Made by a program: the position numbers and the translations under genes. From contig JALSNX010000028.1 of NCBI GenBank assembly GCA_026986775.1, forward strand, positions 7,609 through 71,608: a DNA stretch of 64,000 nt, written 5' to 3'. Below the pieces are notes generated by a model that saw nothing but the letters and a program-made list of their open reading frames with translations, searched no databases and had not been told where the DNA came from. This stretch comes from a candidate division WOR-3 bacterium (GTDB taxonomy: Bacteria > Hydrothermota > Hydrothermia > UBA1063 > CAJXJZ01). This document shows, in pieces, positions 25,280 through 53,650 of the stretch. The stretch's first letter is position 1, and every line of letters begins with the position of its first letter.

Positions 25280-25291
25280 ATCTTACCTCCT

Positions 25292-27355
25292 TCAGACAAT
25301 CCAGTTTTCCTCAACATCCTCCCGGGATATTAGTCGCAAAATATAGAACCCGCTTGCGGGAAATCTCTCCTGAACAATCTCTTTTACAATAATTTTTATA
25401 GCAAGTGCTACAGTTGTATCATCAAGCATAACCTTGCCAAGTGGGACAGAGCACTCAAATACTTTACCCTTCACACAATCTCCGTATTTTCCTTCAACAA
25501 TTTCAAATATTTTGTGCCCCTCAATATCAAAAAACTCTATTCCAATAATACTTTCCATACTTTCAAGAGATTTTTCGCCTTCCACCCTCAGATAAAGATT
25601 ATTCTCATCTCTTCCAAAGAAGAGTCTTGTAAGCGAGGATTTACCCCTTTGCATTACTCCACCCTGTCCGCTTTCAAGGTCAATAACACCAGCACCCAGC
25701 CATTCAAAGAAGTTGGTTACTTTACCATCAAGAGTAGGAGAAATAAAATCACTCTCCTCCTCTATTACATATGTTCTCTTTCTTGTCACGCGTACTGGTA
25801 CATCAAGAAATCCCGGTACATTTCTGCCCAATTTTCTGTAAATCTCTTTTAGATGCTCTCTAAATAGTACATCAAATGTCTCAGCATAAAACGTGGGATT
25901 GTCATCTCCATACCACCAGAACCAGTCCGAACCTTCAGCATATATAAGCTCCATCTCTGCATGACTTTGCTCTTTTAAACTATCTTTGACTTCGTTCTTT
26001 ACGCGAACCAGGTATTCCCATGCTTTGTTTTTTTCAGGATGTCCTATCCATGTGGTGAAATCTGACCTTATCCATGACCCCGGGTGTAACCTCACAAGTT
26101 TTTTACTTTCATGGTTCAGTAAATCTTCTCCCGTCACAAACTCAACCATACCTGAAGCTTCAAGTGTTGAAAATAGTTTCTTCAAAAAGGGTACTCCACC
26201 GTCTTTATAGTTTTCCCAGGGGTTTTCTCCATCAAGAATAATACTTACAACCTCTCCGCCATGCAACACAATGTTTCTTATCCTGTCCATAAAATAAGAA
26301 ATTGCTTTTTCCTTACTCAATCTGTATAAATCAAAGCCTATGCTATCAGACAGTTCCCTATCTCTAAATAAAATCCTGACACCATTAAACTCATATATTT
26401 TGTAAATTTCTGAGGGAAAGTCTCCATTGCGGATTACGTATCCCAGAGATTTTTCCAGTATACCCTCATCAGTACCCACCCACTTTACATCATGCACCCG
26501 GGCAAGATTAATAAATTTTTCAGAAACACCACCCTCAGCAGGCCACATCCCTGAAGGTCTTTTTTTGAATACGGACTCTATGTAATCCATACCAAGTAAA
26601 AGTTGCCTCTCTGCATTTTTCGGGAACCTCCACCTTGTTTCAGGGAGACGAGTATATGGATTTGAAACTTCTGCACAGGATGAGTCTATAAGTAAAGGTG
26701 AGATCGGATGCGCATAGGGTGTAAATGTTATTTCTATCTTGCCTTCTTCCTGCAATTTTCTATAAAGAGGCACAATACGAGAAAGTAAAGTTTTATGCAC
26801 TTCTAAAACCACAGTCTTGTCTTCCTCGCTGTATCCGTAATCTTTTCTTTTTAACTCACCAAGCTCTGGAAACTCTTTTATTGCATAAACAGAGGTGTTA
26901 TAAAGATAAAACAGAATCTGAAGGTCCCTTATCTCACTCGTGGTAAACCTGCTAACCTTTTTTTCTATATCATAGGGACTACCCCTCTTGTCCAGAAGAT
27001 ACAAATAACGCTTTGAGTTTTTGAGCTTCGTGTTGTAATTTAAAGAAAAGAAGTTTTTCAGAATAAATACTCTCTCTTCAAAAGAAAGTGATTCAGCATC
27101 CTTTTTGAAATGTTGTAGAAACACATCCTCAAAATCGTTATTTATATAATCGTTGAGCTGTTCAATGAGGCTCGGAACAAAATTAATGGTGAGCTTTATG
27201 TTATCAATGTCTTCTATCACACGTGCCACATCGTAATATTCTCTTATTCCGTGCATATAAACCCATGGCATGAGATAAACATTCTTTCCGTCCTTTCTTA
27301 TACGATAAACGGGCTGGTGCATATGAAACAAAAACAGAATCTTTACTTTATCCAT
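25292..27355 (-). CDS. GH57 family glycoside hydrolase, amylopullulanase/alpha-amylase-like (not the branching-enzyme motif set)
   Basis: 687 aa; FHMHQPVYR, GMWPAEGGVSE, ILDGENPWE. Confidence 0.8.
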   Translation of the reverse strand: MDKVKILFLFHMHQPVYRIRKDGKNVYLMPWVYMHGIREYYDVARVIEDIDNIKLTINFVPSLIEQLNDYINNDFEDVFLQHFKKDAESLSFEERVFILKNFFSLNYNTKLKNSKRYLYLLDKRGSPYDIEKKVSRFTTSEIRDLQILFYLYNTSVYAIKEFPELGELKRKDYGYSEEDKTVVLEVHKTLLSRIVPLYRKLQEEGKIEITFTPYAHPISPLLIDSSCAEVSNPYTRLPETRWRFPKNAERQLLLGMDYIESVFKKRPSGMWPAEGGVSEKFINLARVHDVKWVGTDEGILEKSLGYVIRNGDFPSEIYKIYEFNGVRILFRDRELSDSIGFDLYRLSKEKAISYFMDRIRNIVLHGGEVVSIILDGENPWENYKDGGVPFLKKLFSTLEASGMVEFVTGEDLLNHESKKLVRLHPGSWIRSDFTTWIGHPEKNKAWEYLVRVKNEVKDSLKEQSHAEMELIYAEGSDWFWWYGDDNPTFYAETFDVLFREHLKEIYRKLGRNVPGFLDVPVRVTRKRTYVIEEESDFISPTLDGKVTNFFEWLGAGVIDLESGQGGVMQRGKSSLTRLFFGRDENNLYLRVEGEKSLESMESIIGIEFFDIEGHKIFEIVEGKYGDCVKGKVFECSVPLGKVMLDDTTVALAIKIIVKEIVQERFPASGFYILRLISREDVEENWIV

Positions 27356-29844
27356 TGCTTTATTCTTTTCACATACTCCCTGTGAAGTTTCTCAGCCTCA
27401 TCTCTGTTCAGTGCTTCCACGAACACATGAAAGTAAGGCTCAAATTCATCTGGATGAATCATCACCCACGAATCTTTATACACTATTTTGATACCATCAA
27501 GGAATGAGGCTTCCTCTCCATGAGCAAGTTCACTCATCTTTCTCATAACAGTTCCTTTTCTATCCCACGGACAGGCGACCTTTTCATGTATAAAATATGG
27601 CCTCTTTAAATCACTGTAAAAGCCATTGATATCCTTTCCAACTCCTGCAAGCATTTCCAGTATTTTACCGATTGCAAACATACCATCTTCTGCTATCTGA
27701 AACTCCGGAAAAATAAAGGCGCCATTCCCCGATGCTACAAGTTTCATATCCGGTGTCTTTGCCTCCTGCGCCATAACTCTTGGATTTGTTGCAATAGGTC
27801 TTACTTCAAAGCCCATTCTCTCGCCTTCTTCAAACACAATTTTAGGAGTATAGGGTGGCACTGCAATGACACCATGTTCGCCATAGGAAAGGGTAAGCAT
27901 GGAGACAAAAACCAGAAGGTCAATACCCTCTATAACATTGCCTCTGTTATCCACAACAATAATCTTCTCGCCATTGGGATAAAGATAAAATCCGACGTCA
28001 AATTTGAGAGATTTTACTATCTTCCCAAGTTCTATGAGCCTCTTTTTGATAACCTCTTCACTCTTAGAAATCTTCCTGTAATCACTGTAAGAATTGAGTG
28101 TAACTACATCCTCAACAAGCTCCTCTATCATGTACAAAAATCTTGGGGCGGTTGTTCCATTTGAGAGGTCAAGAACAATTCTAAACTTCCGTTGCCTTAT
28201 TAGCTCTGTGTTAAGAGCCTTTTTAAATCCCTCCTCATAAAAATCCCAGAGCCTTGTTTCAAAGCTAATACTTCCCACCTCATAATGATGGGCACGCCTG
28301 AAGTCTTCCCTGTAATAAATTCTTTCTATGGATTTGGCTTCAGAACCTGATATATCAACACCATTAGAGTCATAGAAATAGATTTCTGTGGATTCAGGCT
28401 CAGTGGGAGACTGTTTGAAGTAAACGCCTCCCATCTCACCAAAAGTTTGAAGTTTATATCTTAAAACAGGTATTGGAATGTTCTGTGCGTCCTTTACCTG
28501 CACTCCCGTGGACGCAAGTCCACCCATAAATGACCTTCTAAGCATTCTTGAGGCAGGATGTGCATCCCTTCCCAGTAAGATGGTTGCATTTCTCGGTAAC
28601 ACTGTTCCGTATGCAGAACCAAGTTTGGTGGTCATTTCAGGCGTAAGCTCAATATTTGTAAGCCCCTTTATAAATGAACCCTGAAACAGTGCCTTTTTCC
28701 ATTTCTCACCCCATACAAGGTTAAAAGATACAACTGAACCCTGCTCTATCTTCTTACTCGGCCATATTTTTATCCCCTCTTTAACAACAGACTCCCTTCC
28801 TATTCTGCACTCATCCCCTATAACCGCACCCTCCTGAATATGAACATTCTCCTCAACATAGACTCCATTCATTAAAACTGCTTTCTCAATTTTTGTGGCC
28901 TTTTTGAGATAAACATTATCCCAGAGTATTGCACCATCAAGAACAACATCGTCCTCTATTACACAATTATTGCCTATAACCGAGAGCCTTATCTTGGAGT
29001 TTTTGCCGATCCTGGTATTATTACCTATGATAATGGTACCCTGAAAGTTTACATTCTTTCCCAAAACCACATCCTCCCCGATACGAACATCCCTTCCTAC
29101 AAGGTCAAGCTTCTTTCCCGGCACTTCAACGTTAACCATACCATTTAAAATATCGTAATTTGCCAGTCTGTATGAATCAGGGTCTCCTATATCCCTCCAG
29201 TACCCTTCTGATATAAAACCAAACAACCTTTTCTTTTCATTCAGAAGTGCTGGGTAGAGATTCTTTGAAAAATCATATTCCTCATCCTGTGGTATCCTTT
29301 CAATCATCTCGTCGGTAAGAAGGTAAATACCGGTATTTATGGTATCAGAAAATACCTCTCCCCATGTGGGCTTTTCCAGAAACTTAATTATTCTACCCTC
29401 TTCATCTGTAATAACTATACCAAATTGAAGTGGATTATCCACTCTGGTAAGACCGATGGTAACATCAGCAGATTTTTTGTTGTGAAAATCAAGCATTTCT
29501 GAAAGTTCAAAGTCAGTGAGAAGGTCACCACTTATGATAAGATAAAGGTCATCAGGAAATCTATCCCTTGCAAACCTTACAGCACCAGCGGTTCCAAGGT
29601 CTTTATTTGGTATAACATAGTTTATCCTCACTCCGAAATCACTTCCATCGCCGAAAAAGTTCTTGATATATTCTGGGTGATAATAAAGGAGCATAACGAT
29701 ATCAGTTATACCATGTCTTCTAAGAAGTTTCACTATATGCTCCAGGACAGGACGATTTACAAGAGGAAGCATGGGTTTTGGAATATTTACGGTAAGGGGC
29801 CTTATTCTGGTCCCGAACCCACCTGCCATTACAAAGGCTTTCAT
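27343..29844 (-). CDS. sugar-1-phosphate nucleotidylyltransferase (with left-handed beta-helix) fused to a phosphohexomutase-like domain
   Basis: 833 aa; N-terminus MKAFVMAGGFGTRIRPLTVNIPKPMLP; hexapeptide repeats around residues 240-360; C-terminal half aligns by eye to PGM/PMM, but canonical active-site loops are not evident (see finding). Confidence 0.8.
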   Translation of the reverse strand: MKAFVMAGGFGTRIRPLTVNIPKPMLPLVNRPVLEHIVKLLRRHGITDIVMLLYYHPEYIKNFFGDGSDFGVRINYVIPNKDLGTAGAVRFARDRFPDDLYLIISGDLLTDFELSEMLDFHNKKSADVTIGLTRVDNPLQFGIVITDEEGRIIKFLEKPTWGEVFSDTINTGIYLLTDEMIERIPQDEEYDFSKNLYPALLNEKKRLFGFISEGYWRDIGDPDSYRLANYDILNGMVNVEVPGKKLDLVGRDVRIGEDVVLGKNVNFQGTIIIGNNTRIGKNSKIRLSVIGNNCVIEDDVVLDGAILWDNVYLKKATKIEKAVLMNGVYVEENVHIQEGAVIGDECRIGRESVVKEGIKIWPSKKIEQGSVVSFNLVWGEKWKKALFQGSFIKGLTNIELTPEMTTKLGSAYGTVLPRNATILLGRDAHPASRMLRRSFMGGLASTGVQVKDAQNIPIPVLRYKLQTFGEMGGVYFKQSPTEPESTEIYFYDSNGVDISGSEAKSIERIYYREDFRRAHHYEVGSISFETRLWDFYEEGFKKALNTELIRQRKFRIVLDLSNGTTAPRFLYMIEELVEDVVTLNSYSDYRKISKSEEVIKKRLIELGKIVKSLKFDVGFYLYPNGEKIIVVDNRGNVIEGIDLLVFVSMLTLSYGEHGVIAVPPYTPKIVFEEGERMGFEVRPIATNPRVMAQEAKTPDMKLVASGNGAFIFPEFQIAEDGMFAIGKILEMLAGVGKDINGFYSDLKRPYFIHEKVACPWDRKGTVMRKMSELAHGEEASFLDGIKIVYKDSWVMIHPDEFEPYFHVFVEALNRDEAEKLHREYVKRIKQWIK

Positions 29845-30215
29845 TTTTTTCTCTCCGAAAGAAGCCTTTTAATTTCGTTTTTAAGCTCTGTGAGATCTGC
29901 CTGTTTAACCACGTAGGCATCAGCAAACCAGGACATATAATCTTCCTGATAGGAAACATAAGCAGTACTCAGAATAACAGGTATCTTGAGTTCTTCCTTC
30001 ACAATTTTCTGAAGGGCATCAAGTCCTGACATACCTTTCATCTTTATATCAAGAACTATCAGGTCTATATCCCTATCCTTTTGAAGTATCTCTAAAGCTT
30101 CTTCTCCACTTGATGCAAGCAGTACCTCATACCCTTCTTTGGTAAATGTTGTTTTGTAGAGCAATCTTATGTTGTCTTCGTCGTCCACAAACAAAATCCG
30201 AGGCTTCTTATCCAT
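29841..30215 (-). CDS. stand-alone response-regulator receiver (CheY-like)
   Basis: 124 aa; ILFVDDEDN, phospho-acceptor context DLIVLDIKMKGMSG, ILSTAY, conserved Lys in AYVVKQ; ATGA overlap with the downstream gene. Confidence 0.9.
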   Translation of the reverse strand: MDKKPRILFVDDEDNIRLLYKTTFTKEGYEVLLASSGEEALEILQKDRDIDLIVLDIKMKGMSGLDALQKIVKEELKIPVILSTAYVSYQEDYMSWFADAYVVKQADLTELKNEIKRLLSERKK

Positions 30216-34919: not shown

Positions 34920-37166
34920 TTAAAACTGAGTGCCGAACTGAATATGGGGAACCCACTTGCCTCCATTGTTATTAAACCCATAGGCAAGGTCAAATCCAAC
35001 AATGCCCAGCATGGGCATTTCCATTCTTATTCCAATACCTGCACCTTTTTTTAGAACAAAAGGACGCATGTAAGATGAGTTTTTCCATGCATTTCCGGCA
35101 TCAAAAAACAAAAGTCCATAGGTACTTTCACTGAATCTATACCTCAATTCCATTGTACCAATCAGAAAAACCCGTCCACCTACGTTCACACCATTTTCAT
35201 GGGGGCCAACACTTCTGAGCTCATATCCTCGCAATCCAAACGCTCCAACATCTCCAAGGAAAAACCTTTCATTGAATGGCACGTCTTCAGCCGCATAAAG
35301 TCCAACCACACTGCCTGTAAATCCACGCAGAGCAAGTATTATTTTCCTCCTGTAGTTAAAGAGCTGTGACCTTTCAACAGTAAGCTTTCCAAAATTGGCA
35401 TCCCCCATGAGTGGACCGCCTGCAAGTTTGGTTGTTACAACAGTTCTTTCTCCATTCATTGCATTAAAAGACCTGTCCCGTGTATCTCTTGTGAATGTCA
35501 GTGTAATGGCAGAGGTTAGAACAGGCTTTTCCTGTGTCCACTCCTCAAATTCGGGCAATGATTTTAACTCGTCAGGAATATCCTTGAGAGTAACCCTTTC
35601 AAGGGTGTAGCCATAACCAAGATAATTGAAGTCACTTATGATTCTCTGACGATACCCCAGAGAGAACCCTTCCTTTTGTTCAGTATAGGAAGGTAAATAT
35701 CTCGTTGTATAATACACTGCTCCAGAGAAAGACCGTCTCTTTCCTCCAATCCACGGAATCGTGTAATTCAGAGATACATTTCGTCTCTGAGCGCCATATT
35801 CAACAATACCACCTACAGTCTGGCCTCTTCCAAGGAAATTTGGCTCCTGAATCTGAAAATAAAAAGATAATCCATCTATTTCAGAATATGTTGCTCCAAG
35901 TCCAAGCTGGCCTGTTGATTTTTCCTCCACTTTGAATGTCACGTCTATTTGAGAAGAATCTGACGTCTCTGAAAAATCCATTGAGACATTACTGAAATAA
36001 TTGAGGTAATAGAGGTTCCGCTGAGACCTTATGGCCATCTTTCTTGAAAAATACTCACCGGGGAAAAGATACAGCTCTCTTCTTATAACTTCATCAAAGG
36101 TCTTTGTATTACCTTTGATATTGACTTTCCTGACTCTGACCCTAACCCCCTCATTGATATAAACGATGAAATCAACCGTATCGCCCCGTACACTATCACG
36201 CGGATATACAGTTGCATAGATATACCCGGAATCAGCATAAAGTGACTGAATATTCTCAAGACTCTTTTCTAATTTCTTCTGAGAATATACCGCTTTTGGC
36301 CGTAGAACCCATAAGAGGTTCAAAAGTCTGCTCTTAAACAATTTGTTACCTTCAAATCTCACCTTACCGGCATAATACTTCTTTCCCTCTGTAATATATA
36401 TCCTTATATAGATGTCCTTTCCTTTTCTATCCACCTTAAACGAATCAACACGGGCATTCATATATCCACGATTTCTATAATACTCCTCTATTTTCTTCAT
36501 ATCATTCTGAAGTTCTTCTCTTTTAAGTTTGCCCGACCTCAAAAAGCCACGTGGCTTATTCTTCATCTTTGCAATCAGCTTTTTATCTTTAAATACGGTG
36601 TTACCAAAGATTTCAACCTTTTTTATGCGCGCTTTAGGACCTTCGTTAATCTCAAAAACCACATCCGTGAGACATCCTTTTCTGTTTCTATAAGAATAAC
36701 TTATCTCTGCATAGGGATAGCCTTTCTCTGTATAAATATCTTTTATGTACGCTACTGTTTCTTCAAGAAGAGCATCGGAAACTGGGTCACCCCTGTGAAG
36801 GGGAAAACGCTTTATAACCTTTTCCTCTGTATTTTCACCAGTGCCAACCTCTTTAGTACGGTCTTTTGTAAGTTCCGAAGTTTTGACCTTCCTGTTGCCC
36901 TTGAATATGATACTATCCACTCTGGGATTCTCAGTAATATATAGATAGATATCAAGGGAGTCTCCATTTCTTACCGCTCTCACTCTCACCTGCTCTGCAA
37001 AGTTATGCTTTATAAGGTCTTTTATCGCTTTATCAATTTCCGGATAGGATATATCAACGTCCTCTCTTAGTCCTGTAAATGTACGGTAAAAATCGGTGCG
37101 GTTGCACATTGCACCTGAAAAACTCACGGTTCTTATTACGAAGGAAACAAGAAAGGCTATCAACAT
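34920..37166 (-). CDS. bamA: outer membrane protein assembly factor BamA (POTRA repeats + Omp85 barrel)
   Basis: 748 aa; repeated POTRA-like units (..I.FKGN.KV....L..), C-terminal barrel ending ...HIQFGTQF. Confidence 0.9.
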   Translation of the reverse strand: MLIAFLVSFVIRTVSFSGAMCNRTDFYRTFTGLREDVDISYPEIDKAIKDLIKHNFAEQVRVRAVRNGDSLDIYLYITENPRVDSIIFKGNRKVKTSELTKDRTKEVGTGENTEEKVIKRFPLHRGDPVSDALLEETVAYIKDIYTEKGYPYAEISYSYRNRKGCLTDVVFEINEGPKARIKKVEIFGNTVFKDKKLIAKMKNKPRGFLRSGKLKREELQNDMKKIEEYYRNRGYMNARVDSFKVDRKGKDIYIRIYITEGKKYYAGKVRFEGNKLFKSRLLNLLWVLRPKAVYSQKKLEKSLENIQSLYADSGYIYATVYPRDSVRGDTVDFIVYINEGVRVRVRKVNIKGNTKTFDEVIRRELYLFPGEYFSRKMAIRSQRNLYYLNYFSNVSMDFSETSDSSQIDVTFKVEEKSTGQLGLGATYSEIDGLSFYFQIQEPNFLGRGQTVGGIVEYGAQRRNVSLNYTIPWIGGKRRSFSGAVYYTTRYLPSYTEQKEGFSLGYRQRIISDFNYLGYGYTLERVTLKDIPDELKSLPEFEEWTQEKPVLTSAITLTFTRDTRDRSFNAMNGERTVVTTKLAGGPLMGDANFGKLTVERSQLFNYRRKIILALRGFTGSVVGLYAAEDVPFNERFFLGDVGAFGLRGYELRSVGPHENGVNVGGRVFLIGTMELRYRFSESTYGLLFFDAGNAWKNSSYMRPFVLKKGAGIGIRMEMPMLGIVGFDLAYGFNNNGGKWVPHIQFGTQF

Positions 37167-37172
37167 AACTAT

Positions 37173-40371: not shown

Positions 40372-41637
40372 TCAATGTTTTCTTTTACGTTTAAGCTCGA
40401 GATTGATTATTTTTGCTGCTCTTTTGAGAGCTTTATCTACAGGCAACACACCTCTAAGGGCATATTCAAGTCCTTCTGTTGAAAGATACCGTCTTCCTGT
40501 AAACCATGCAGGATTATTTGGCTCAAAATCACAGTAGGCCACCTGTTTCATGGCTTCCTCCATTCCGGGCACTTCTTCAAAGAATTTTTTCATCTCAGGT
40601 TGCTCAAAAGCACTCTTTGTCAGGGGAAGGTATCCTGTATGAACTGACCAGTAAGCTTGATTTTCCGGCCTCAAAAAATACTTTATGAACTCTATGGCAT
40701 TTCTTCTCTGCCAGTCCGGAACATCTCTATAAAGCGTTACATTTGTGCCTGATACAATAACTGTACTGTCTTTGGTTACTGCATCCATGGGAATCCTTGC
40801 AACACCAAGGTCAAAGTCTATCTTATCTTTCATAAAGCTGTAAGACACTATTGTACCCCATACCATGGCCACCTTTCCAGCAGCAAAATCATCCTGATGC
40901 TTATATCCTGTCGTTATGTAGGCACAGCTGTCCTTATACACAAGGTCATAGAGAAACTGCAAAGCCTCTACACCGGCTTTTGAATCAAAAACAGCTGAAT
41001 CATTAACTATGAGCCGACCACCCTTCTGGTAAAGCAACGTTGCAAACATCCAGACATCTATTACAAAAGCAGTACCATAGATGTCAGGTTTTCCATCTCC
41101 ATCTTTATCAATAGTAAGTTTCTTTGCTACTTCTCTGAATTCCTGCCATGTTCTTGGAAAAGAATCTATTCCGTATTCCCTGAAAAGGTCTTTGTTATAG
41201 TAATAAACAGGCACGCTTTTATTAAAAGGGAATGTAACAAGTTTACCATTCCATGTATTGTCCTTTATTAAAGGTGGAAATATATCTTCCAGCAAACTAT
41301 CTGGTATCATGTCCTTATACTCTTCCACTGGCACTATTTTCCCGGCATCCATTAATTCAGATGTCCACGACTCATATACCTGTGAAAATGTGGGGGGTCT
41401 TGAAGAGGCCACAGCCCCCATAATTTTTTGGGATAAAGTTGAATAATTACCAAGGTTAACCTGAACTATTTTCAAAGAATCCGGCACCTGTGCGTTATAG
41501 TTATTAACTATATTCAAAAGCGCCTCCCCGAGGGGACCTCCCATAGCATGCCAGAATACAGTCCTATTTGTATTTTTTGAAACGCAGCCAGCAAACAGCA
41601 GAATAACAAGAAGGATACTACTTCTTGCTTTTTTCAT
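40372..41637 (-). CDS. ABC transporter extracellular solute-binding lipoprotein (family 1, carbohydrate-type); no cognate permease or ATPase adjacent
   Basis: Lipobox LLFAGC. I prefer ATG 41637 (SD GAGGAG upstream) over the track start 41664. Typical SBP_bac_1-like length and pattern. Confidence 0.8.
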   Translation of the reverse strand: MKKARSSILLVILLFAGCVSKNTNRTVFWHAMGGPLGEALLNIVNNYNAQVPDSLKIVQVNLGNYSTLSQKIMGAVASSRPPTFSQVYESWTSELMDAGKIVPVEEYKDMIPDSLLEDIFPPLIKDNTWNGKLVTFPFNKSVPVYYYNKDLFREYGIDSFPRTWQEFREVAKKLTIDKDGDGKPDIYGTAFVIDVWMFATLLYQKGGRLIVNDSAVFDSKAGVEALQFLYDLVYKDSCAYITTGYKHQDDFAAGKVAMVWGTIVSYSFMKDKIDFDLGVARIPMDAVTKDSTVIVSGTNVTLYRDVPDWQRRNAIEFIKYFLRPENQAYWSVHTGYLPLTKSAFEQPEMKKFFEEVPGMEEAMKQVAYCDFEPNNPAWFTGRRYLSTEGLEYALRGVLPVDKALKRAAKIINLELKRKRKH

Positions 41638-42715
41638 TCCTTTTCTCCTCTTTTTTAGGTCCAAGAGGCATTGAATAAGTTAAGGCATATCTTAGATTAG
41701 CACCATTATTATTGAAACTATATATTTTACTGTCATCTGAAACATCAAGTCTGAAATTGCCAATATGGAACCCTACGCCATAGGTTATTCCTTTCCTTGC
41801 ACCTTCTTCGTCCCAAAAATACCCAAATCTAAAACTCAAAAGGTTATAAAAGGTGTATTCCAGTCCACCATGTTTCCATGCCTCGTTTAACACATATCCA
41901 AAACCCTTGTCTTCATAATCCTTAGAGATACCGACCAGTATTTTGTTTATATCCATAGATACTGTAAAACTGTGATAGGGCATACTCATTTTCAAAGCCA
42001 AACCATTTCTCATAAGATAAGGCAATGGGTCTTTTTCATCTGCTGACGATGAATACTTTATTCCCGGGCCGAAATTATCCAGTTGCAGGCCATAGGTGAC
42101 TTTCATTTTAAACCAGCTGGTTTTTGAATGAATCCACTCTTTCTCAAGAACTGTATAAAGCAGAGAGCCTCCAATTGCAAAAGATGCTCCCTTTCCACCA
42201 CCCTCTATGCCAGTGGCTTTTCGCAGAATTTCTGCCGGAGCAAGGAAGGAATAGATAAACTTGATATTAGTTCCCACACTGAGGCGTTTATTTACATCGT
42301 ACGCGTATGCGAGATTTGCAGCCACATCATAGGGGCGCCATTCTCCGTAGTACTCTCCATCAGGCCCATGCCCCTCAAACAATCCATAAGTGGCATATGT
42401 GATAGAAAGTCCTAAAGCTCCCACAGGAAGTGGTCTGGTCAAACCAATAAATTCATAATACATGTCAGGTGCAAGCCCCCTGAGCCATGGGGAATGCATT
42501 AACGTGATTTCAAAGTCTTTTTTAAATGCAATGGCAGAAGGATTATAGTATAGTGCGGTTGCATCATCCGCCACAGCGCAAAAAGCACCACCTAAAGAAG
42601 TGGCTTTGGCTCCGGGATATATTAACAAAAACACTGCACCTGCCTCAAAAGCAGACGCCTGAAGCAGTGTAACAAGGAATAATACTCCCATTATTTTTTT
42701 CACAAATCTATTCAT
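41618..42715 (-). CDS. outer-membrane beta-barrel, PorV / FadL / UPF0164-like
   Basis: 365 aa; signal peptide; N-terminal motif AVFLLIYPGAKATSLGGAFCAVADDATALYYNPSAIAF resembles (from memory) the PorV-family signature; alternating beta-strand pattern throughout. Confidence 0.5.
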   Translation of the reverse strand: MNRFVKKIMGVLFLVTLLQASAFEAGAVFLLIYPGAKATSLGGAFCAVADDATALYYNPSAIAFKKDFEITLMHSPWLRGLAPDMYYEFIGLTRPLPVGALGLSITYATYGLFEGHGPDGEYYGEWRPYDVAANLAYAYDVNKRLSVGTNIKFIYSFLAPAEILRKATGIEGGGKGASFAIGGSLLYTVLEKEWIHSKTSWFKMKVTYGLQLDNFGPGIKYSSSADEKDPLPYLMRNGLALKMSMPYHSFTVSMDINKILVGISKDYEDKGFGYVLNEAWKHGGLEYTFYNLLSFRFGYFWDEEGARKGITYGVGFHIGNFRLDVSDDSKIYSFNNNGANLRYALTYSMPLGPKKEEKRNEKSKK

Positions 42716-42865
42716 TATATCAACCCCCTTAATTGATACTGTAATAAGTAAAGTCTAACGGATAACTTACAGATGTTCAAATAAAAAGCCCTTATAAATT
42801 AAATGTATACCAAAGGATTTTCTATATTCCATCATTGATGAATTCAAGCTTTTAATCACTTTCCA

Positions 42866-45298: not shown

Positions 45299-46204
45299 CT
45301 ATACAGACAGCCTATCAAGAAACTGTCTGTCTTTTCTCCACCTTTCATGTACTTTGACCCATAGCTCAAGGAACACTTTTCTTCCCAAAAACGCTTCAAT
45401 TTCCTTTCTCGCGTAAGTCCCCAGTTTCTTTATTTTCAGACCACCTTTTCCAATAATAATGGGCTTCTGGCTTTCTTTTTCCACATAAATTATCGCCCTT
45501 ATATAATCCACACCACCGTGTCTTTCATCTTTTTCTATGAATTCGTCAACTTTTACTGCAGCAGCATAAGGTATCTCCTCGCCATACAGATTATAGAGTT
45601 TCTCTCTTATTATTTCTTCAACCATGAATCTTTCGTTTCTGTCAGTTGTAGTATCTTCAGGATAATAAAACTCGCCTTCAGGAAGATATTTGACTATGCT
45701 ATCAAGGAGTTCATCAACATTGATGTTCATCGTCACGCTCATGGGAAAAATCTCTTTAAATGGATAGAGCCTGTTATAAGTTTCTATTAAAGGCAGGAGC
45801 CTTGTTTTCTCAACCATATCAACCTTGTTAATAGCACATATTACCGGCTTCTCATGTTTTTTAAGAAGTTCAATGGTATACATATCAAGCTCATCAGGTC
45901 CAAAGGGATCTGTTATAAACAACACCACATCTGCCTCTTCAAGAGATTCCACGGCATTTTTTATCATCCTCTTATGCAATTCATGTTTTGGCTTTGATAT
46001 TATGCCTGGAGTATCCAGAAAGAGAATCTGAGCGTTATCAAGCGTGAGTATCCCCAATATCCTATGTCTTGTTGTTTGTGGTTTTCTGGACATTGCTGCA
46101 ATTTTCACCCCGATGAGTCTATTGAGCAACGTTGACTTACCCACATTGGGCTTGCCAACTATACCCACATAACCTGATTTTTTAGAAACTGTATTTTGTT
46201 CCAA
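45299..46204 (-). CDS. era: GTPase Era
   Basis: G1 GKPNVGKST, G3 DTPG, G4 NKVD, C-terminal KH domain. I place the start at TTG 46204..46202 (SD GGAGG 7 nt upstream) rather than the track ATG at 46360, which would overlap the upstream gene by 179 nt. Confidence 0.92.
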   Translation of the reverse strand: MEQNTVSKKSGYVGIVGKPNVGKSTLLNRLIGVKIAAMSRKPQTTRHRILGILTLDNAQILFLDTPGIISKPKHELHKRMIKNAVESLEEADVVLFITDPFGPDELDMYTIELLKKHEKPVICAINKVDMVEKTRLLPLIETYNRLYPFKEIFPMSVTMNINVDELLDSIVKYLPEGEFYYPEDTTTDRNERFMVEEIIREKLYNLYGEEIPYAAAVKVDEFIEKDERHGGVDYIRAIIYVEKESQKPIIIGKGGLKIKKLGTYARKEIEAFLGRKVFLELWVKVHERWRKDRQFLDRLSV

Positions 46205-47396
46205 TTTTAAACCTCCTTTCCTTAAAAAATTGCAATTTATCCTGTGTGGTGGGGTCAGTTTCTTCAATTGTTCCGCGGGTGAACAGATGGTGTTCCCAGA
46301 AAAACTGAAACCTTCCCCTCTGATATTCCAGCCTTCCTCCGGCATTGTAAACCCTGCCACTTTTATCCTGAACCTGATATATGCATAAAATAGGGCTATA
46401 TACGAGTTTTCCCCACATCGGTATATGAGCTACTGCCTTTAACTTAGACAATGCTCTATTGGTAACTCCGTATACCGTCAGGAAATTCTCATAATTTCCC
46501 AACAATTTAAAGTATTCTCCCTGAATATCCAGATATTTACCCTTAAACGCAAATTCAACGTCCAGACTTTTCTTAAAAACAGAATCGGGTACTCTATAGT
46601 TAAGGTTGAGTAAAACCGGCTTTTTGTCTATAAGTATACTGAGTCTTCTTTCCATGATAGCCATAATAGAATCCCCTGTAATACCGTCTGGATAGAGATA
46701 TGAGAACAAATGAGGGGTTTTAATATCATACCCGTAATGGAGGTCAAGATATGCTCCTCCTGTTATCAAAACCTTTAAATTAAATTCAGGAATAAGCTTA
46801 CTGGTAAGTCCAAGTGACACAAATTTCCTGTTGCCCATTATACCGACACCAGCTCTGTAAATATCCTCATATCCTCGCCTGGATAGCATATCCGTGCGCT
46901 CAATTCCTGAATAAGTCAACACACCTTCTGTACCTGAATAAACAATGGAGAATGCAATGGGTAAATTGAATACAGCATGAGCTGTACTATCTTTTCTAAA
47001 ATAATGCAGTCCGGGAAGCAACGTAATGTTAGGAATAATTCTACCCCATGAGAAATATAAATCCACTGTATCTCTGAGTATAATAGAATACTGTGACCTA
47101 TTCCTCAAAAGACCATATACTCCATGACTTATGCTAAAGAAGCGCGTCGCTATAAAGTATCTGTTTTCTAATGAGGTAAATGGCTCATAGTCATAGCGTT
47201 CTTCCGCAGCAAAATAAAAGCTCTTAAACTTAATTCTAAAATCAGTATGATACCCTGCTTTTAAATAATCCTTTTCCTGGTTGTAATACACAAATTCCCA
47301 TCTTGGAGGATTAATTTCAAGAGCATTTGTGGGCAGAAATATAGAATCAGGTATATTCAACTTCAAAGATACAAGAATAACCGTCAAAACATTCAT
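46182..47396 (-). CDS. hypothetical outer-membrane beta-barrel candidate
   Basis: 404 aa; hydrophobic N-terminus; aromatic-rich alternating pattern; C-terminal ...KIGTKYSF (terminal Phe typical of OMP beta-signals); start abuts the stop of the LptF/G-family gene. Confidence 0.4.
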   Translation of the reverse strand: MNVLTVILVSLKLNIPDSIFLPTNALEINPPRWEFVYYNQEKDYLKAGYHTDFRIKFKSFYFAAEERYDYEPFTSLENRYFIATRFFSISHGVYGLLRNRSQYSIILRDTVDLYFSWGRIIPNITLLPGLHYFRKDSTAHAVFNLPIAFSIVYSGTEGVLTYSGIERTDMLSRRGYEDIYRAGVGIMGNRKFVSLGLTSKLIPEFNLKVLITGGAYLDLHYGYDIKTPHLFSYLYPDGITGDSIMAIMERRLSILIDKKPVLLNLNYRVPDSVFKKSLDVEFAFKGKYLDIQGEYFKLLGNYENFLTVYGVTNRALSKLKAVAHIPMWGKLVYSPILCIYQVQDKSGRVYNAGGRLEYQRGRFQFFWEHHLFTRGTIEETDPTTQDKLQFFKERRFKIGTKYSF

Positions 47397-48747: not shown

Positions 48748-48780
48748 AATTAAATTTTACGGGTATTTCTGGATAAATCA

Positions 48781-48808
48781 AAGAAAAAAGGGGGCACTCT
48801 GGCCCCCT
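48781..48808 (-). terminator. Rho-independent terminator after the C25 prodomain-like gene
   Basis: Minus strand GGGGGCcagagtGCCCCCttttttctt, 10 nt after the stop at 48818; same GGGGGC/GCCCCC stem as the pilin terminator. Confidence 0.8.
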
Positions 48809-48817
48809 ATGTATTGA

Positions 48818-49456
48818 TCAGTTCCTCAGTGGTGGCGCAAAAGCATCTATATCCTCAGGATTTACAACAAAGCCCTTTAGCTGTCCACGAATAAGGTTAA
48901 GTTGATTTATGGTAATTGGATTTACACTTCTGGCTCCTTCCTGATACTTCACTTTTAGAACGAGACTGGTAATAACCCTCAATTCACCACTTACGGGATT
49001 ATATATAACAGGATACACGATGAAAGAAGCAAGAGAGAATCCTCCCATGTTCCCAACTTTGCCAAACTTTACCGGAATTTCTGGATAAAAAGCATCCTTT
49101 TCGTATATCTTTTTATCCGGCCCAATAAATTTCTCGGGAACCTTGAAGGAAATTGGAACCGGTTTCTGCTGTGGTATAACTTTATAGCCTGTACCAATGT
49201 ACTTCGTCTCCATACTCACAATTTCAAAGCCATTGAAACTACTTCCTGCTGGTATAAGCACGGCAACACCACGAGAAGGAAGCATAGGAGCACCAAAAGG
49301 ATTGGTGTAGCCAAAATCTTCATATGTAACCGTAACATATCCCTTTTCCGATCCCAATTTAACTTTAGCAGGGTCAAAAGAGAATTTTATTATTTTTTCT
49401 CCTGCCTGCAGAATCGTAAAGGAAAGAAGCATTATAAAAAGTGTCTTTTTAAGCAT
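48818..49456 (-). CDS. stand-alone secreted protein homologous to the gingipain (peptidase C25) N-terminal prodomain
   Basis: 212 aa; signal peptide MLKKTLFIMLLSFTILQA; GAPMLPSRGVAVLIP, YEKDAFYPE and VIYNPVSGELRVITSLVLKVKY line up with RgpB prodomain segments GTPILPILSRSLAV, YNEDKFFPGE and LQYNPVTKTLRIYTEIVVAV (recalled). Confidence 0.7.
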   Translation of the reverse strand: MLKKTLFIMLLSFTILQAGEKIIKFSFDPAKVKLGSEKGYVTVTYEDFGYTNPFGAPMLPSRGVAVLIPAGSSFNGFEIVSMETKYIGTGYKVIPQQKPVPISFKVPEKFIGPDKKIYEKDAFYPEIPVKFGKVGNMGGFSLASFIVYPVIYNPVSGELRVITSLVLKVKYQEGARSVNPITINQLNLIRGQLKGFVVNPEDIDAFAPPLRN

Positions 49457-49466
49457 AACCCACCTC

Positions 49467-52385
49467 CTACCTTGTCTTCAAAATCTTTTCAATTTTCTTA
49501 TAATCCCGGGCGTTTATATTCACGAAGTAAACTCCAGGCCTTACTGTGGATAAATTAACAGAATGAACACCGATGTTACTGTTCACTGTAAATTCTTCAG
49601 ATTTCACAAGACGGCCATCAACACCGTACACCACCACATCAACTTTTGTGTTTACAGGAGCTTCATAGGCAATGGAAAGATAACCACTTATTATATTATT
49701 TCTGAGAGCAAATCTAATTTTCCTTCCTCTTTCCTGCTCACCTACACCTGTTGTTGGAACAACATAAACGGTATCCTGAGCATAAATGTAGTTATGCTTC
49801 GTGGAGGTAATTACTATATCATTGGTTTCTGCGGCATTGACAGAAAAACTCACAGTTCCTGAAGCGTCTGTGGTATCAACGAGATAAATATCGTAACTAT
49901 CTCCTGAAAACTTCTGAAGCAGCGTAACAACAGCATCGGATACTGCAGCCTTACTCTTAGCATCAGATACAGTTACTGTAATGACCGTGTCCTGTCCCTG
50001 AAGTATGGTATCAGTATTAACAGTCATAACTAAATTCACCGGTACCTCTGTCCATATCTCAAGCGTCGGGTCACCAAGGAGATTTCTTTCATAAAGACAC
50101 CACCTGAAATAATTGTCATTCTGGGCATCAGGCACCATTGAACTCTGCATATTTGCCCAGACCTGACCAAGAATGTATAGTCCATTTTGATGAATGGCTC
50201 TGAAGAAGTACTTACTCTGTTCTCCTGATGGCCCAAGTGCACCTTCAGGTGACGAATAGCCCCAGCCATACCTTGAATTAAACAAAGACGCCACTGTTCC
50301 ACCGTTTGTAGCATTTACAAGATGCTCTGCAAAACAGTCTCCATTTGATACCTCATCCATTGCACCAGCGAAACAGGCTATTGATGTGGTAATTGAGAGT
50401 TTGTCAAAACCGTTGGAAAGGTTGTCTGCATCTGTATTGTTCATCATTGTGCTTGAACCGTTATTATAATAAACTCCATACTCATTACCATGACCTACAA
50501 AGTGCACCAATTGATAACCGTTATTAAATTCACTGTTAACTGAAGACTCCGATACGCCCTCCACATCTTCCCTCATAAATGTATGCGTCCAGTCGGCAGG
50601 GTCAAACTGAACCATGGTATCAGGCATACTGGTACCATGATTGGTATCCCAGAGATTACCCTGAGGGTGGAAGCTTGATTTTATATATGATGCATCCTGA
50701 TAAGGACTCCTCTCAAAATAGAGTAACTTGTTAACAAAGTTCTGGACCTGAGACGTGTTCTTTACAGGTGCTCTCCCAACATAAACATCGGGGTACATAT
50801 CCACATTATCACTCGTTTCTCCATAGGTTCCGTCACCATCACCATCCCACGTTCCATCCAGGTCAGCAAAATACAGATCTGTTATAATGGTATCCTCATC
50901 TGTATAATAACCGGCATTGGACTGGAACACAAAGGCATTTCTCCTTGGCACTATCTCCTCGCCGTTTTCATAGTCACACTGCCCACCAAGAAGGAAATAC
51001 ATGGTTCCATAATTTGCATTCATGTCCTTGATGAAATTCCTTATTTTTTCTGCATTATCATTGCCCGTGTAATTCGCATAAATAGTGTCAAGGGAAACTA
51101 TTCTGGTTCTTATTCCTTTCTGGTTTTTCCAGTCTGCAAGAGGTTCAAAATACGGTGCAAATGAAGAGGATGTGATTATAACAAAATCTGCAGGGCCTAT
51201 GGAGCCTGAGCCACCTCCTCCACCACCACCTGTGCCCCAGGTGTAGGTTTCAGAATGAGAATTATCAGATTCATTGGTTTCTGGTATAGTATTATCTGGG
51301 TCAGCAGTAATCTGGTAGGTGTAGGATCCATCTGTGCTTTCATGTATTTTGTAATTCTTTACATAGACATAATAGCCCGATTGTAAACCCTGTGAATACC
51401 ATCCTGCTATTGCCTGTCCTTCTCTATAAAGATAGTAATATATAGTGTCTGTAGAGGGAATGTCATCAGGTCCTTCATTTATAACCGCCCAGTGCACATA
51501 CTGAGAATCGCCGGGGTTTGTACTGTAATTTCCAGGAGGCGCTGCCGTTGTATCCGAGGAATCAGCAGAAATTACGAGGGATGAATACCATCCTGTAGGG
51601 GTATAAGGTTTTAGATTGGCAGAATAACCAGAACCTCCTCCTGAGGTCTCTATATAAGCAGTAATAAGCCAGTCTATATGAGTACCCGCACCACCGTAAT
51701 CTGCCCACCAACTATCAGTCTGTTCCCAACTGCCGTTGTACATATCATAACAACGATCAGGAGCAATACCAGATGTATCATAAATAAGCCCAAGAGTATC
51801 CACACCAGAAAGTAAAGAATAACCTATATAAAAATCACCGTTTCCCACATTTATACCTAATGATGAAAGGTCAACATATGTACCATGACCGTCGGTATAA
51901 ATATTACTCGTAGATATATCCATATAACCGAGTTCTGTTCCCGGTCCTCCACCATTATCATTCCAAACATGTATTCTTATATTACCACTCCCCACCAGAT
52001 GATAAAACCAGAAAGCAACTCCAACTAGCTGTCCCGACTGTGAAGGAGTAAATTTCACCGAGTAAAGAGAATCATCATAACTATCAGGCTGGTTCCAGTA
52101 AAAATAAGCAGCACTGGAACTTGTATCCCAGTAAAAAACTTTAAGCGTATCACCCTTAGTATACATATCATCAATTACAGGTTTAATTCTAACCAGATCA
52201 CCGTAAGTTCCTTTTTTTGAGCAAATTTTCTTATTGTTTGTTACCGGAAGACTTTTCCCCGTTTTATTCCATTTATCAGCCTTCGCCACTTGAGCCCTGC
52301 CCACTATGGGCACGCCCTTGAGGGGATGTGTCGTTACCACAAGCCCCCCATACATTATCAGGATGGACATTACTATACCATACAT
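49467..52385 (-). CDS. secreted multidomain cysteine peptidase, family C25 (gingipain-like), with T9SS-type C-terminal sorting domain
   Basis: 972 aa; catalytic-domain start FVIITSSSFAPYFEPLADWKNQKGIRT, His in VHFVGHGNEYG, Cys in ITTSIACFAGAMD; CARDB-like module ending DPDNTIPETNESDN; Gly7-Ser linker; C-terminus ...RPGVYFVNINARDYKKIEKILKTR. Confidence 0.85.
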   Translation of the reverse strand: MYGIVMSILIMYGGLVVTTHPLKGVPIVGRAQVAKADKWNKTGKSLPVTNNKKICSKKGTYGDLVRIKPVIDDMYTKGDTLKVFYWDTSSSAAYFYWNQPDSYDDSLYSVKFTPSQSGQLVGVAFWFYHLVGSGNIRIHVWNDNGGGPGTELGYMDISTSNIYTDGHGTYVDLSSLGINVGNGDFYIGYSLLSGVDTLGLIYDTSGIAPDRCYDMYNGSWEQTDSWWADYGGAGTHIDWLITAYIETSGGGSGYSANLKPYTPTGWYSSLVISADSSDTTAAPPGNYSTNPGDSQYVHWAVINEGPDDIPSTDTIYYYLYREGQAIAGWYSQGLQSGYYVYVKNYKIHESTDGSYTYQITADPDNTIPETNESDNSHSETYTWGTGGGGGGGSGSIGPADFVIITSSSFAPYFEPLADWKNQKGIRTRIVSLDTIYANYTGNDNAEKIRNFIKDMNANYGTMYFLLGGQCDYENGEEIVPRRNAFVFQSNAGYYTDEDTIITDLYFADLDGTWDGDGDGTYGETSDNVDMYPDVYVGRAPVKNTSQVQNFVNKLLYFERSPYQDASYIKSSFHPQGNLWDTNHGTSMPDTMVQFDPADWTHTFMREDVEGVSESSVNSEFNNGYQLVHFVGHGNEYGVYYNNGSSTMMNNTDADNLSNGFDKLSITTSIACFAGAMDEVSNGDCFAEHLVNATNGGTVASLFNSRYGWGYSSPEGALGPSGEQSKYFFRAIHQNGLYILGQVWANMQSSMVPDAQNDNYFRWCLYERNLLGDPTLEIWTEVPVNLVMTVNTDTILQGQDTVITVTVSDAKSKAAVSDAVVTLLQKFSGDSYDIYLVDTTDASGTVSFSVNAAETNDIVITSTKHNYIYAQDTVYVVPTTGVGEQERGRKIRFALRNNIISGYLSIAYEAPVNTKVDVVVYGVDGRLVKSEEFTVNSNIGVHSVNLSTVRPGVYFVNINARDYKKIEKILKTR

Positions 52386-52486: not shown

Positions 52487-52514
52487 ATTATACACCTTTA
52501 TCCAGAAAAGTCAA
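52487..52514 (-). promoter_or_regulatory. sigma70-type promoter with extended -10 for the C25 protease operon (TTGACT-N16-TATAAT, the last two spacer bases being TG)
   Basis: Minus strand gtTTGACTtttctggataaaggTGTATAATtag, about 95 nt upstream of ATG 52385, which has SD GGGGAGG. Confidence 0.55.
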
Positions 52515-52538: not shown

Positions 52539-53363
52539 TTACTTTATTAACCTGAGAAGTTGGAGCATTTCAAGTGGGTATTGCATGTGTTTTATATTTT
52601 CCTTTCTACATCCATCACGCTGATCCTCATCATAATTATCACAATTCTCTGTCTCAACTACAAATGAAAAAACTATGTCTCCTATGTTTTGCGGTATAAA
52701 ATAAAGATAATGATAGAGATGACCGGCCGCACCTTCTGTTCCCCCTTTTATGAAACAGAATCTAATGGAATTATGTTTCAGAGTAATTATTTTGCTCTCT
52801 ATCTCCTTGTTTTCAGATGGAAAAAAGTCATGGATGAATTTGAGAGATGGACAGGAATCTTTATTTTGTATTATAGAGGAATCCACCTTGTTTACGCTCA
52901 ATCTAACAAAACCAGAAGGCTCAATTTTGCTGAGTATAACAAGACCTGAATTCTTTAAAATATAGACCTTAGAAGTATCTTTAATTTCTGATTTGCGAAT
53001 TACTGCATTTTTGTAAGTCTGCTTTAACGATACAACTCTACATCCTTCGGCACGACACCTCAAAATAGATATTTCATCAATTATTCCAACACTTTCCCAT
53101 TCTTTAAATCCCTCCTTCAAGCTGGCATAAACTCTATAGAGAGAACTGTCAATTTTTTCAACACCTTTTATTGTAAATCCCGTGTATCTAAAGTCACCAC
53201 TTTCTATTAAGGAATACTCAGGATTTAGTGTGTCAGAGGTTGCATCCTTTATAAATCCGCTGTCACACTCTACCCTTGCTCTGTAGAACTTTTCAGCAAA
53301 CCTACGAACATAATTGGAAGGAGAAACTGCAAGTACTAATATGCAAAAGAGTATAGCCGTCAT
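52539..53363 (-). CDS. hypothetical exported protein, Cys-rich, no recognisable family
   Basis: 274 aa; N-terminal hydrophobic segment MTAILFCILVLAV; AT-rich coding DNA; no motif recognised. Confidence 0.3.
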   Translation of the reverse strand: MTAILFCILVLAVSPSNYVRRFAEKFYRARVECDSGFIKDATSDTLNPEYSLIESGDFRYTGFTIKGVEKIDSSLYRVYASLKEGFKEWESVGIIDEISILRCRAEGCRVVSLKQTYKNAVIRKSEIKDTSKVYILKNSGLVILSKIEPSGFVRLSVNKVDSSIIQNKDSCPSLKFIHDFFPSENKEIESKIITLKHNSIRFCFIKGGTEGAAGHLYHYLYFIPQNIGDIVFSFVVETENCDNYDEDQRDGCRKENIKHMQYPLEMLQLLRLIK

Positions 53364-53365
53364 TT

Positions 53366-53650
53366 TTATTCCTCACATATGCATGGTATTCTCCCACACT
53401 TTGGACAACCTTTTTCATACTTTTTTATCGCATCATCAAGGTTAATGTCAAGTAAATTTGCAAGAGAAAATGTCCAGGCAAGGACATCGGCAAACTCTTC
53501 CTCAAGGTTTTTCCTATCTTTTTTTCTTATGGCCTTTGCAAGCTCACCCACTTCCTCACACAGCCATCTGAAGGTGCCCTCCACGCCACGGGCAGAATCC
53601 TTCTTATAGTAAATATCTCCTATCAGTTTCTGAAACTCTTTCATCTCCAT
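53366..53650 (-). CDS. small MazG-like nucleotide pyrophosphohydrolase
   Basis: 94 aa; EEVGELAKAI...EEFADVLAWTFSLANLLDINL (EExxE/D metal motifs) plus a C-terminal CPKCG..CIC cluster. Confidence 0.75.
   Translation of the reverse strand: MEMKEFQKLIGDIYYKKDSARGVEGTFRWLCEEVGELAKAIRKKDRKNLEEEFADVLAWTFSLANLLDINLDDAIKKYEKGCPKCGRIPCICEE

Follow-up and report, generated by a model that had tools for sequence, protein, structure and literature searches.

We describe here a pair of adjacent genes in a stretch of 64,000 nucleotides (nt) from a candidate division WOR-3 bacterium (positions 7,609 to 71,608 of contig JALSNX010000028.1, assembly GCA_026986775.1; this whole stretch is called the window, and positions are counted from its first letter). 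One gene encodes a protease of the gingipain family (C25), and the other, which follows it after 10 nt, encodes a protein of 212 amino acids (aa) that is, judged by its sequence and predicted fold, a genuine C25 prodomain. An earlier reading, made from the letters of the DNA alone (the sequence-only reading), had given the coordinates of both open reading frames (ORFs), their domains, the 10-nt spacing, a Shine-Dalgarno (SD) sequence lying over the protease stop codon and a strong terminator. That description is accurate, because the ORFs, domains, junction and terminator were all confirmed, on the minus strand. The features of the locus are as follows, where T9SS stands for type IX secretion system and AF2 for AlphaFold2.

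52487–52514, minus strand: promoter-like site (TTGACT, 16 nt, TATAAT) upstream of the protease gene, from a consensus scan (11 of 12 positions), a consensus match alone and no proof of function
49467–52385, minus strand: gene for a 972-aa C25 (gingipain-family) protease without a prodomain (ORF list, Pfam and PDB match)
52347–52385, minus strand: atypical uncharged hydrophobic leader of 13 residues, MYGIVMSILIMYG, which could be a signal peptide or a signal anchor and is conserved in orthologues
52281–52346, minus strand: conserved motif GLVVTTHPLKGVPIVGRAQVAK, which aligns to residues 212–233 of the fused relative P0030
51636–52208, minus strand: β-rich module (about aa 60–250) without a recognisable family
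51252–51524, minus strand: CARDB domain (aa 288–378; PF07705, E 4e-9, 37 bits against a cutoff of 22.7)
51207–51230, minus strand: Gly7-Ser linker (aa 386–393), read from the sequence
50058–51185, minus strand: Peptidase_C25 catalytic domain (aa 401–776; PF01364, E 6.9e-59, 200.4 bits against a cutoff of 23)
49482–49685, minus strand: T9SS type A C-terminal sorting domain, hereafter CTD (aa 901–968; PF18962 Por_Secre_tail, 28.7 bits against a cutoff of 27; TIGR04183, 29.7 bits against a cutoff of 23)
49457–49472, minus strand: coupling junction AGGTAGGAGGTGGGTT, with the TAG stop of the protease inside the SD sequence (AGGAGG) of the prodomain gene, read from the sequence
48818–49456, minus strand: stand-alone 212-aa C25 prodomain gene (profile search, AF2 model, Foldseek)
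49115–49192, minus strand: long exposed coil (aa 89–114) with the invariant P95-QQKPVPIS-S103, a candidate inhibitory loop (DSSP on the AF2 model)
48779–48808, minus strand: intrinsic terminator, AGGGGGCCAGAGTGCCCCCT then TTTTTTCTTTG, directly after the small ORF (7-bp stem with six GC pairs, T-run)

The C25 core of the protease had been taken to be intact, and this is borne out: the PF01364 match spans positions 1–373 of the 374 in the profile, among solved structures the RgpB mature domain comes nearest by sequence (4ief_B, 3.7e-11), and in the alignment to it His632 (VHFVGHGNEYG; nt 50490–50492) and Cys671 (SIACFAG; nt 50373–50375) stand opposite RgpB His211 and Cys244. Neither residue varies in any of 23 homologues and, by this alignment, the catalytic dyad is intact. 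Peptidase_C25, CARDB and TIGR04183 all score above cutoff in the large ORF, as does PF18962, which substantiates the proposed sorting domain as well as the CARDB-like unit that, with its Gly7-Ser linker, had been placed ahead of the catalytic domain. The CARDB domain is homologous to the CARDB units of P0030, and the glycine linker is conserved across the protease orthologues (56–78% identity) with a length that varies from G5 to G8. The β-rich module found no match in Pfam or NCBIfam, and its sole match in a profile search of the PDB was a pentraxin at a non-significant E of 0.47. Asp163 of the RgpB S1 pocket and RgpB Glu152 correspond to Thr and Gln in the protease, in an alignment too loose for inferring S1-pocket specificity.

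A prodomain within the protease itself was looked for and was not found. The Pfam search returned no match of the protease to PF08126 (Propeptide_C25) at E up to 1, and comparison of its N-terminal 385 aa with the prodomain profile (hhalign) gave a probability of 0.2%, which rules out a cryptic prodomain in this region and agrees with the earlier claim that the first ~390 aa are unrelated to one. Residues 253–912 align to residues 737–1406 of P0030 (45% identity, 1e-166), and residues 14–35 (GLVVTTHPLKGVPIVGRAQVA) align to residues 212–233 of P0030, the segment right after the P0030 prodomain. The motif GLVVTTHPLKGVPIVGRAQVAK stands directly after the prodomain in fused relatives, and after the signal peptide in the clades, described below, whose prodomain gene lies upstream. 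In the 1,016-aa orthologue P0017 the N-terminal motif (I)IVTTKPIKGVPIVGEAKTA is tandemly duplicated, at residues ~14–35 and 62–83. No further C25 or prodomain sequence was found in the window. On these alignments the protease is without a prodomain, and it departs from the canonical C25 zymogen architecture, in which both parts share one chain.

The pair is laid out as an operon, with one promoter-like site upstream of the protease gene and one terminator after the prodomain gene, and we infer that the two genes are co-transcribed. The SD sequence of the protease gene (GGGGAGG) lies 5 nt ahead of its ATG. At the junction, AAG ACA AGG TAG GAGGTGGGTT ATG, a 10-nt gap separates the genes and, as this sequence reads, protease and prodomain are translationally coupled. 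The GC content of the two genes is 41.4% and 39.3%, against 39.7% for the window.

The small protein and the C25 prodomain fold

The small protein opens with a signal peptide of the classic Sec type, as read from the sequence (aa 1–19, nt 49400–49456; it starts MLKKTLFIMLLSFTILQAG), and its sole Pfam match is Propeptide_C25, at 20.5 bits and E 2.9e-4. It had been described as a prodomain look-alike with a signal peptide of its own, an identification that an insignificant match to this family would undercut; the window sequence is indeed marginal in this respect (20.5 bits against a gathering score of 22), but its orthologues, the profile built from them and the predicted fold all support a prodomain. 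There are ten full-length orthologues of 211–212 aa, with 64–83% identity; PF08126 is matched by all 11 orthologous sequences, the best at 8e-8, and P0132, which is of the type found at locus L009, reaches 44.2 bits.

A profile made from the small ORF and its orthologues (A1, 11 sequences) was searched against 1.84 billion representative proteins and matched 4,882 of them with an E of at most 1e-3, of which 1,131 had one of at most 1e-10. Of the 150 best matches listed, almost all are proteins of 700–3,000 aa that are matched over their first ~212 residues, and the top fused match, P0133 (5e-42), carries Propeptide_C25 at residues 38–200 followed by Peptidase_C25 at 219–574. Against the PDB the same profile gave two matches only, the prodomains of Kgp (5mun_A, 8e-5) and RgpB (4ief_A, 0.0097). 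The AF2 model of the small protein, built on an alignment of 43 sequences, has a mean predicted local distance difference test score (pLDDT) of 93.1 and a predicted template modelling score (pTM) of 0.83; it replaced an earlier model from the 11 close orthologues only, which at a pLDDT of 38.7 was unusable. The sequence-only reading had suggested a structural comparison with the RgpB zymogen, and the model of the 212-aa protein, taken alone, does match its prodomain: Foldseek against the PDB found the RgpB prodomain in four chains of 4IEF (E 2e-10 to 7e-10, TM 0.67–0.74) and the Kgp prodomain in two chains of 5MUN (E ~1e-8, up to 4e-8), with TM values of 0.52–0.74 over the two entries together, and beyond these prodomains the next match had an E of 0.7.

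The protein terminates in FAPPLRN, one residue past the motif [FY]APP[LIV][RK]. Where relatives are fused, it is at this motif that the prodomain stops; the linker comes next, and then the catalytic domain, starting with DYVIIT. Because orthologues, profile and fold agree, the identity of the prodomain is secure despite the marginal Pfam score.

The longest coil of the model, aa 89–114, bears the most conserved block of the small-protein family. Within it P95-QQKPVPIS-S103 is invariant in the A1 alignment and is aligned by HMMER to Lys121–Arg126 of RgpB, the inhibitory loop; the motif P-x-Q-[KR]-x-[VIL]-P is common to all split and fused prodomains of the subfamily, in which K98 is Lys or Arg throughout. 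The RgpB prodomain binds its catalytic domain laterally, with Arg126 of the loop Lys121–Tyr135 entering the S1 pocket, and recombinant Rgp prodomains act in trans as inhibitors of the mature enzyme, at a low-nM Ki (PMC4138498). By analogy, the prodomain encoded in the window would act in trans as an inhibitor or a chaperone of its protease. One could also picture the small protein as a non-inhibitory partner, either a pure folding chaperone that is released early or a structural or targeting subunit of the mature enzyme. Prodomains are often intramolecular chaperones, the ASP–ORF2 pair of Aeromonas (see below) shows that a partner encoded downstream can be needed for maturation, and the residue equivalent to P1 is not basic here. 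However, the most conserved block is the very loop that is inhibitory in RgpB, and the ORF2 chaperone is at the same time a temporary inhibitor, the two roles not being exclusive; we regard a partner with no inhibitory part to play as unlikely.

Split and fused relatives

When related genomes were surveyed for the same split order, the arrangement of protease and then prodomain, with an identical 10-nt gap, was seen in 10 independent loci (the window, L001–L004, L009, L010 and L013–L015), which come from different samples, represent at least seven species-level lineages and are labelled candidate division WOR-3 where named. In the most distant of these pairs, that of L009, the prodomain has 37% and the catalytic domain 69% identity, and since L009 holds the pair in the same layout but in a different genomic neighbourhood, the pair appears to move as a unit. 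The prodomain keeps a length of 211–213 aa down to this 37% identity. Within the clade the dS of the prodomain gene exceeds 2 and is saturated, while dN is 0.14–0.27; with dS saturated the dN/dS ratio is not properly estimable and the conclusion is a qualitative one, namely that the gene is, by these values, under purifying selection. It is not a pseudogene, because the ORF has stayed intact through that much divergence.

These observations bear on a possibility that the sequence-only reading had itself raised, that of a remnant: on this view the small ORF has no function and is what was left of the 5' end of another, downstream C25 gene of a tandem array once its catalytic part had been deleted. 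Tandem C25 arrays are common (as in L035 and L037, with a 27-nt gap), the small ORF is the exact counterpart of residues 1–212 of canonical precursors, with the signal peptide, and descent of the small ORF and its partner from one gene is beyond what prodomain phylogeny can show, so that the route may well describe the origin of the gene. As an account of its present state, however, a dead remnant seems very improbable: the ORF is intact and of constant length in at least seven species-level lineages, the low dN goes with a conserved 10-nt gap and SD sequence, the terminator follows directly, and there is no coding trace of a catalytic domain downstream. An artefact of assembly or gene calling, in which a single gene was mis-assembled or frameshifted, may be set aside as next to inconceivable. 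Such cases do occur among the apparent splits elsewhere, since those of L031, L045, L051 and L059 are frameshift-like overlaps of ORFs, which we rejected as splits, and L075, considered as a second instance of a C25 gene followed by a prodomain-only gene, was discarded where its ORF runs into masked Ns. In the window, though, the protease precedes the prodomain, an order that no frameshift could fuse meaningfully, the small ORF has an SD sequence, an ATG and a signal peptide of its own, and the identical arrangement is found in 10 independent assemblies from different samples.

The wider subfamily, in which CARDB units accompany the C25 domain, places the pair in context. All eight of the eight prodomain-less lineages examined in it carry an adjacent stand-alone prodomain gene, and from this pattern the pairing looks obligate. 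Two layouts occur:

Prodomain gene downstream of the protease gene, gap of 10 nt: the window clade; P0023
Prodomain gene upstream of the protease gene, gap of 2 nt: P0024, P0025, P0027, P0028, P0029 and P0032

In the upstream type the prodomain ends in two arginines followed by its stop codon, and their AGGAGG codons are at the same time the SD sequence of the protease gene (AGGAGGTAAnnATG). To the sequence-only reading the pair had looked like a circularly permuted zymogen, but the permutation is incidental: six of the eight sister lineages keep the canonical order, with the prodomain gene first and a 2-nt gap, and the fused proteins P0030 and P0031 likewise run from prodomain through modules to C25. 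Judged by these relatives, what defines the system is that the gene was split where the prodomain ends, and the downstream order is a local variant of this fission.

P0030 and P0031 (1,531 and 1,554 aa), which are metagenomic and uncharacterised, consist of Propeptide_C25 at residues 37–178, ~600 aa of CUB-like and CARDB modules, Peptidase_C25 at ~875–1251 and a CTD. They resemble the protease of the window in their CARDB units, the motif after the prodomain, the Gly-rich linker and the CTD, and differ from it in that they have kept their prodomain as the N-terminal part of one long chain. In a neighbour-joining tree of catalytic domains the split group (the window clade, L009, L011 and L012) is monophyletic (100%), with P0030 and P0031 as its sister (100% support; 49–53% identity). 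In a set of 74 loci with a prodomain, drawn from many phyla, essentially all but the split ones named above are conventional fusions, and canonical fused C25 genes, in 70 loci other than the split ones, show no accompanying stand-alone prodomain copy.

It is against this background that a broader role for the small protein has to be judged, that of a general periplasmic inhibitor or immunity protein directed at other C25 proteases, whether paralogues of its own genome or those of competitors. WOR-3 and related metagenome-assembled genomes (MAGs) are rich in C25 paralogues, the prodomain resembles those of many subfamilies to about the same degree (30–37%), and one lineage tolerates disruption of its prodomain gene. 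Yet adjacency is strict and coupling is found only with prodomain-less proteases, in all eight lineages, and the 70 fused loci do without a stand-alone copy; a general inhibitor is, to our mind, quite improbable.

The downstream position may have arisen either by relocation of the upstream gene or through capture, from a tandem paralogue, of its 5' end. Two Anaerolineae MAGs (L035, 1897–7784; L037, 1880–5942) encode a 935-aa prodomain-less C25 protein, a 27-nt gap and then a 1,019-aa protein with both prodomain and C25 domain. Such a tandem is a possible and plausible precursor of the protease-then-prodomain layout, and could be a case of one prodomain serving two proteases. Capture of the downstream prodomain from a different C25 paralogue was put to the test. 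At first the two parts seemed discordant, P0133 and P0134 combining the nearest prodomains with the most distant catalytic domains. The deep prodomain nodes of the neighbour-joining trees are not resolved, however, and across 187 fused homologues prodomain similarity stays flat (30–37%) whatever the catalytic similarity (Spearman 0.35); the prodomains have diverged too far for a decision, and the claim of discordance was dropped.

Export and genomic surroundings

The sequence-only reading had held that both partners are exported. For the small protein this stands, given its classic Sec signal peptide; for the protease it is less certain, as its leader is atypical and has no basic residue. The leader follows the pattern MY[GN]I[VI]..L..YGG in 12 orthologues, has no Lys or Arg, and offers an uncharged hydrophobic stretch of about 13–19 residues, the first charged or His residue being at position 20; it is found at the N-termini of P0013–P0023, and P0029, of the upstream type, likewise has a hydrophobic leader beginning with MY. 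Export of the protease is nevertheless plausible, because it carries a CTD. In the upstream-type proteases P0025, P0027 and P0028 (L011, L008 and L005–L007), a Gln follows the likely signal-peptide cleavage site (LNA/QE, IFS/QS and LFS/QG), and an N-terminal Gln resembles the pyroglutamate N-terminus of T9SS cargo in Bacteroidota.

A PorV homologue (41621–42754, minus strand; 43.8 bits against a cutoff of 27), syntenic in L001–L004, and BamA (34923–37172, minus strand) both lie a few kb from the protease operon. Within the 64-kb window the PorV homologue is the only T9SS machinery seen, with neither SprA nor PorU there. Because PorV, BamA and LptF/G all occur in the window, its gene content shows the organism to be a diderm with T9SS parts.

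Between MazG (53366–53650) and the protease gene lies an ORF of 274 aa (52539–53363, minus strand) with a hydrophobic N-terminus and no Pfam match, which is absent from L001, where MazG is immediately ahead of the protease. Another ORF without a Pfam match, of 404 aa (46182–47396, minus strand), stands between LptF/G and Era and is syntenic in L001 (416 aa) and L002 (394 aa); it overlaps the longest-ORF call of Era, the start of which is probably further downstream (301 aa in relatives). Elsewhere in the window there are two adjacent genes of the GH57 family (23243–27391, minus strand), one of the 4-alpha-glucanotransferase/amylase type and a second GH57, adjoined by a fused nucleotidyl-transferase/phosphoglucomutase gene (27346–29868). 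The window is strongly biased in strand, 43 of its 45 stop-to-stop ORF segments of at least 200 aa being on the minus strand, and a tRNA scan and an Rfam scan of all 64 kb found nothing.

Proposed latency in trans and its parallels

We think it probable, from the sequence comparisons and the model, that the locus is a two-gene C25 zymogen system. The ancestral precursor would have consisted, like P0030 and P0031, of a signal peptide, a prodomain, β-modules with CARDB, C25, an Ig-like region and a T9SS CTD, and its gene would have been split exactly at the natural prodomain boundary, at the motif [FY]APP[LIV][RK]; in the window clade the prodomain gene would then have come to lie 10 nt downstream of the protease, with its translation coupled. 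Both products would reach the periplasm, where the prodomain of ~190 residues may bind the catalytic domain non-covalently, with the loop P95-QQKPVPIS-S103 sitting in or near the active-site cleft as in RgpB. The protease might in this way be held latent, its folding possibly aided, until the T9SS exports it by its CTD. Since the prodomain has no CTD, activation would come about through its dissociation or degradation rather than through cleavage of a bond between propeptide and enzyme.

Several observations pull in the other direction. The small ORF of the window falls just short of the PF08126 gathering score, and the protease leader of the window clade is devoid of basic residues; in the upstream-split clades it is a classic MKK signal peptide that precedes the same motif. 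Ser103 stands opposite the P1 residue Arg126 of RgpB, and Asp163 of the RgpB S1 pocket maps to Thr. The Kgp prodomain has a negligible effect in trans, so that trans inhibition is not universal in the family (PMC4138498). Finally, in L005 (2881–4998), L006 (2–1183) and L007 (2–718) an insertion sequence (IS) with a DDE_Tnp_1 transposase stands in place of the start codon and signal peptide of the prodomain gene upstream, of which residues 19–201 remain in frame, while the protease P0028 is intact. Three samples show this same state. It may be, then, that the prodomain can be dispensed with, at least for a time, or that the L005–L007 protease is heading to inactivation.

If the locus is a two-gene zymogen system, a further suggestion concerns the T9SS itself, one that we offer tentatively and on balance doubt. 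The prodomain, having no CTD, might stay in the periplasm and be stripped from the protease at the translocon, perhaps to be recycled, a safety catch coupled to secretion; or else the complex might be exported together. In the case of stripping, the protease would turn active by leaving the compartment of its inhibitor, with no proteolytic activation; in the case of joint export, the T9SS would be able to export hetero-oligomers. Whichever proved to be the case, it would be new to T9SS biology and to the control of zymogens.

Among characterised systems the gingipains RgpB and Kgp of Porphyromonas gingivalis (4IEF, 5MUN) share with the window the C25 family, the His/Cys dyad, the prodomain fold and the T9SS CTD. 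In 4IEF the complex of prodomain and catalytic domain is non-covalent (PMC4138498). The gingipain prodomain, however, forms the N-terminal part of one chain with its enzyme and is cleaved off by proteolysis, whereas that of the window is a separate product with its own signal peptide; the window protease also differs from RgpB and Kgp in having ~390 aa of unrelated modules ahead of its catalytic domain, and the prodomains are only 17–22% identical, with the P1 Arg/Lys and the S1 Asp not conserved by alignment.

The sequence-only reading had likened the pair to staphopain and staphostatin, and these are indeed a cysteine protease and a specific protein inhibitor in one operon. Staphostatins, though, are cytoplasmic lipocalin-like β-barrels unrelated to the staphopain prodomain, and staphopains retain a prodomain of their own. 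Foldseek of the 212-aa model against the PDB returned no staphostatin among its matches, and with a signal peptide and a prodomain fold in the small protein the analogy is a poor one; two other pairs are closer. SpeB and Spi of Streptococcus pyogenes are described as a cysteine protease and a small inhibitor, whose gene lies immediately downstream, on a bicistronic mRNA (PMC5613712). The likeness to the window is in the small partner gene right downstream of a cysteine protease; the differences are that SpeB belongs to family C10 and retains its prodomain and that Spi lacks a signal peptide and is believed to act in the cytoplasm, whereas the window protease has no prodomain and its partner is exported. 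Spi is reportedly, in work of Kagawa et al. from 2005 that PMC5613712 and PMC1298937 cite, homologous to the SpeB prosegment. For Aeromonas sobria, a further report describes a propeptide-deficient protease, ASP, with ORF2 encoded just downstream, needed for its maturation and acting as a temporary inhibitor in the catalytic site (PMC5638518). ASP–ORF2 and the window have in common a secreted protease without a propeptide and an adjacent partner gene, but ASP is a serine protease (kexin-like, S8) and is not secreted by a T9SS, unlike the C25 protease here. ORF2 is not known to be homologous to the subtilase propeptide.

A full-text literature search found no paper that mentions Propeptide_C25, PF08126 or a separately encoded gingipain prodomain, and a separately encoded C25 prodomain appears to be undescribed for the family. 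Gingipains are drug targets in periodontitis, and C25 prodomains have been studied as inhibitors of them that occur naturally and act at nM levels; we know of no demonstration of prodomain action in trans other than with recombinant fragments. The locus would offer a natural trans arrangement, kept in at least eight lineages and in a T9SS context, and with it a natural system for asking whether a covalent tether is needed for latency or folding, how the T9SS handles cargo that is inhibited non-covalently, and how far a zymogen tolerates large insertions between prodomain and catalytic domain. There is a consequence for annotation as well. Both proteins of the window are nameless in public sources, as are the stand-alone genes of ~200–215 aa beside C25 genes in WOR-3-like MAGs, several of them without a precomputed Pfam match, and C25 proteases that seem to lack a prodomain and to be active constitutively may really be under regulation.

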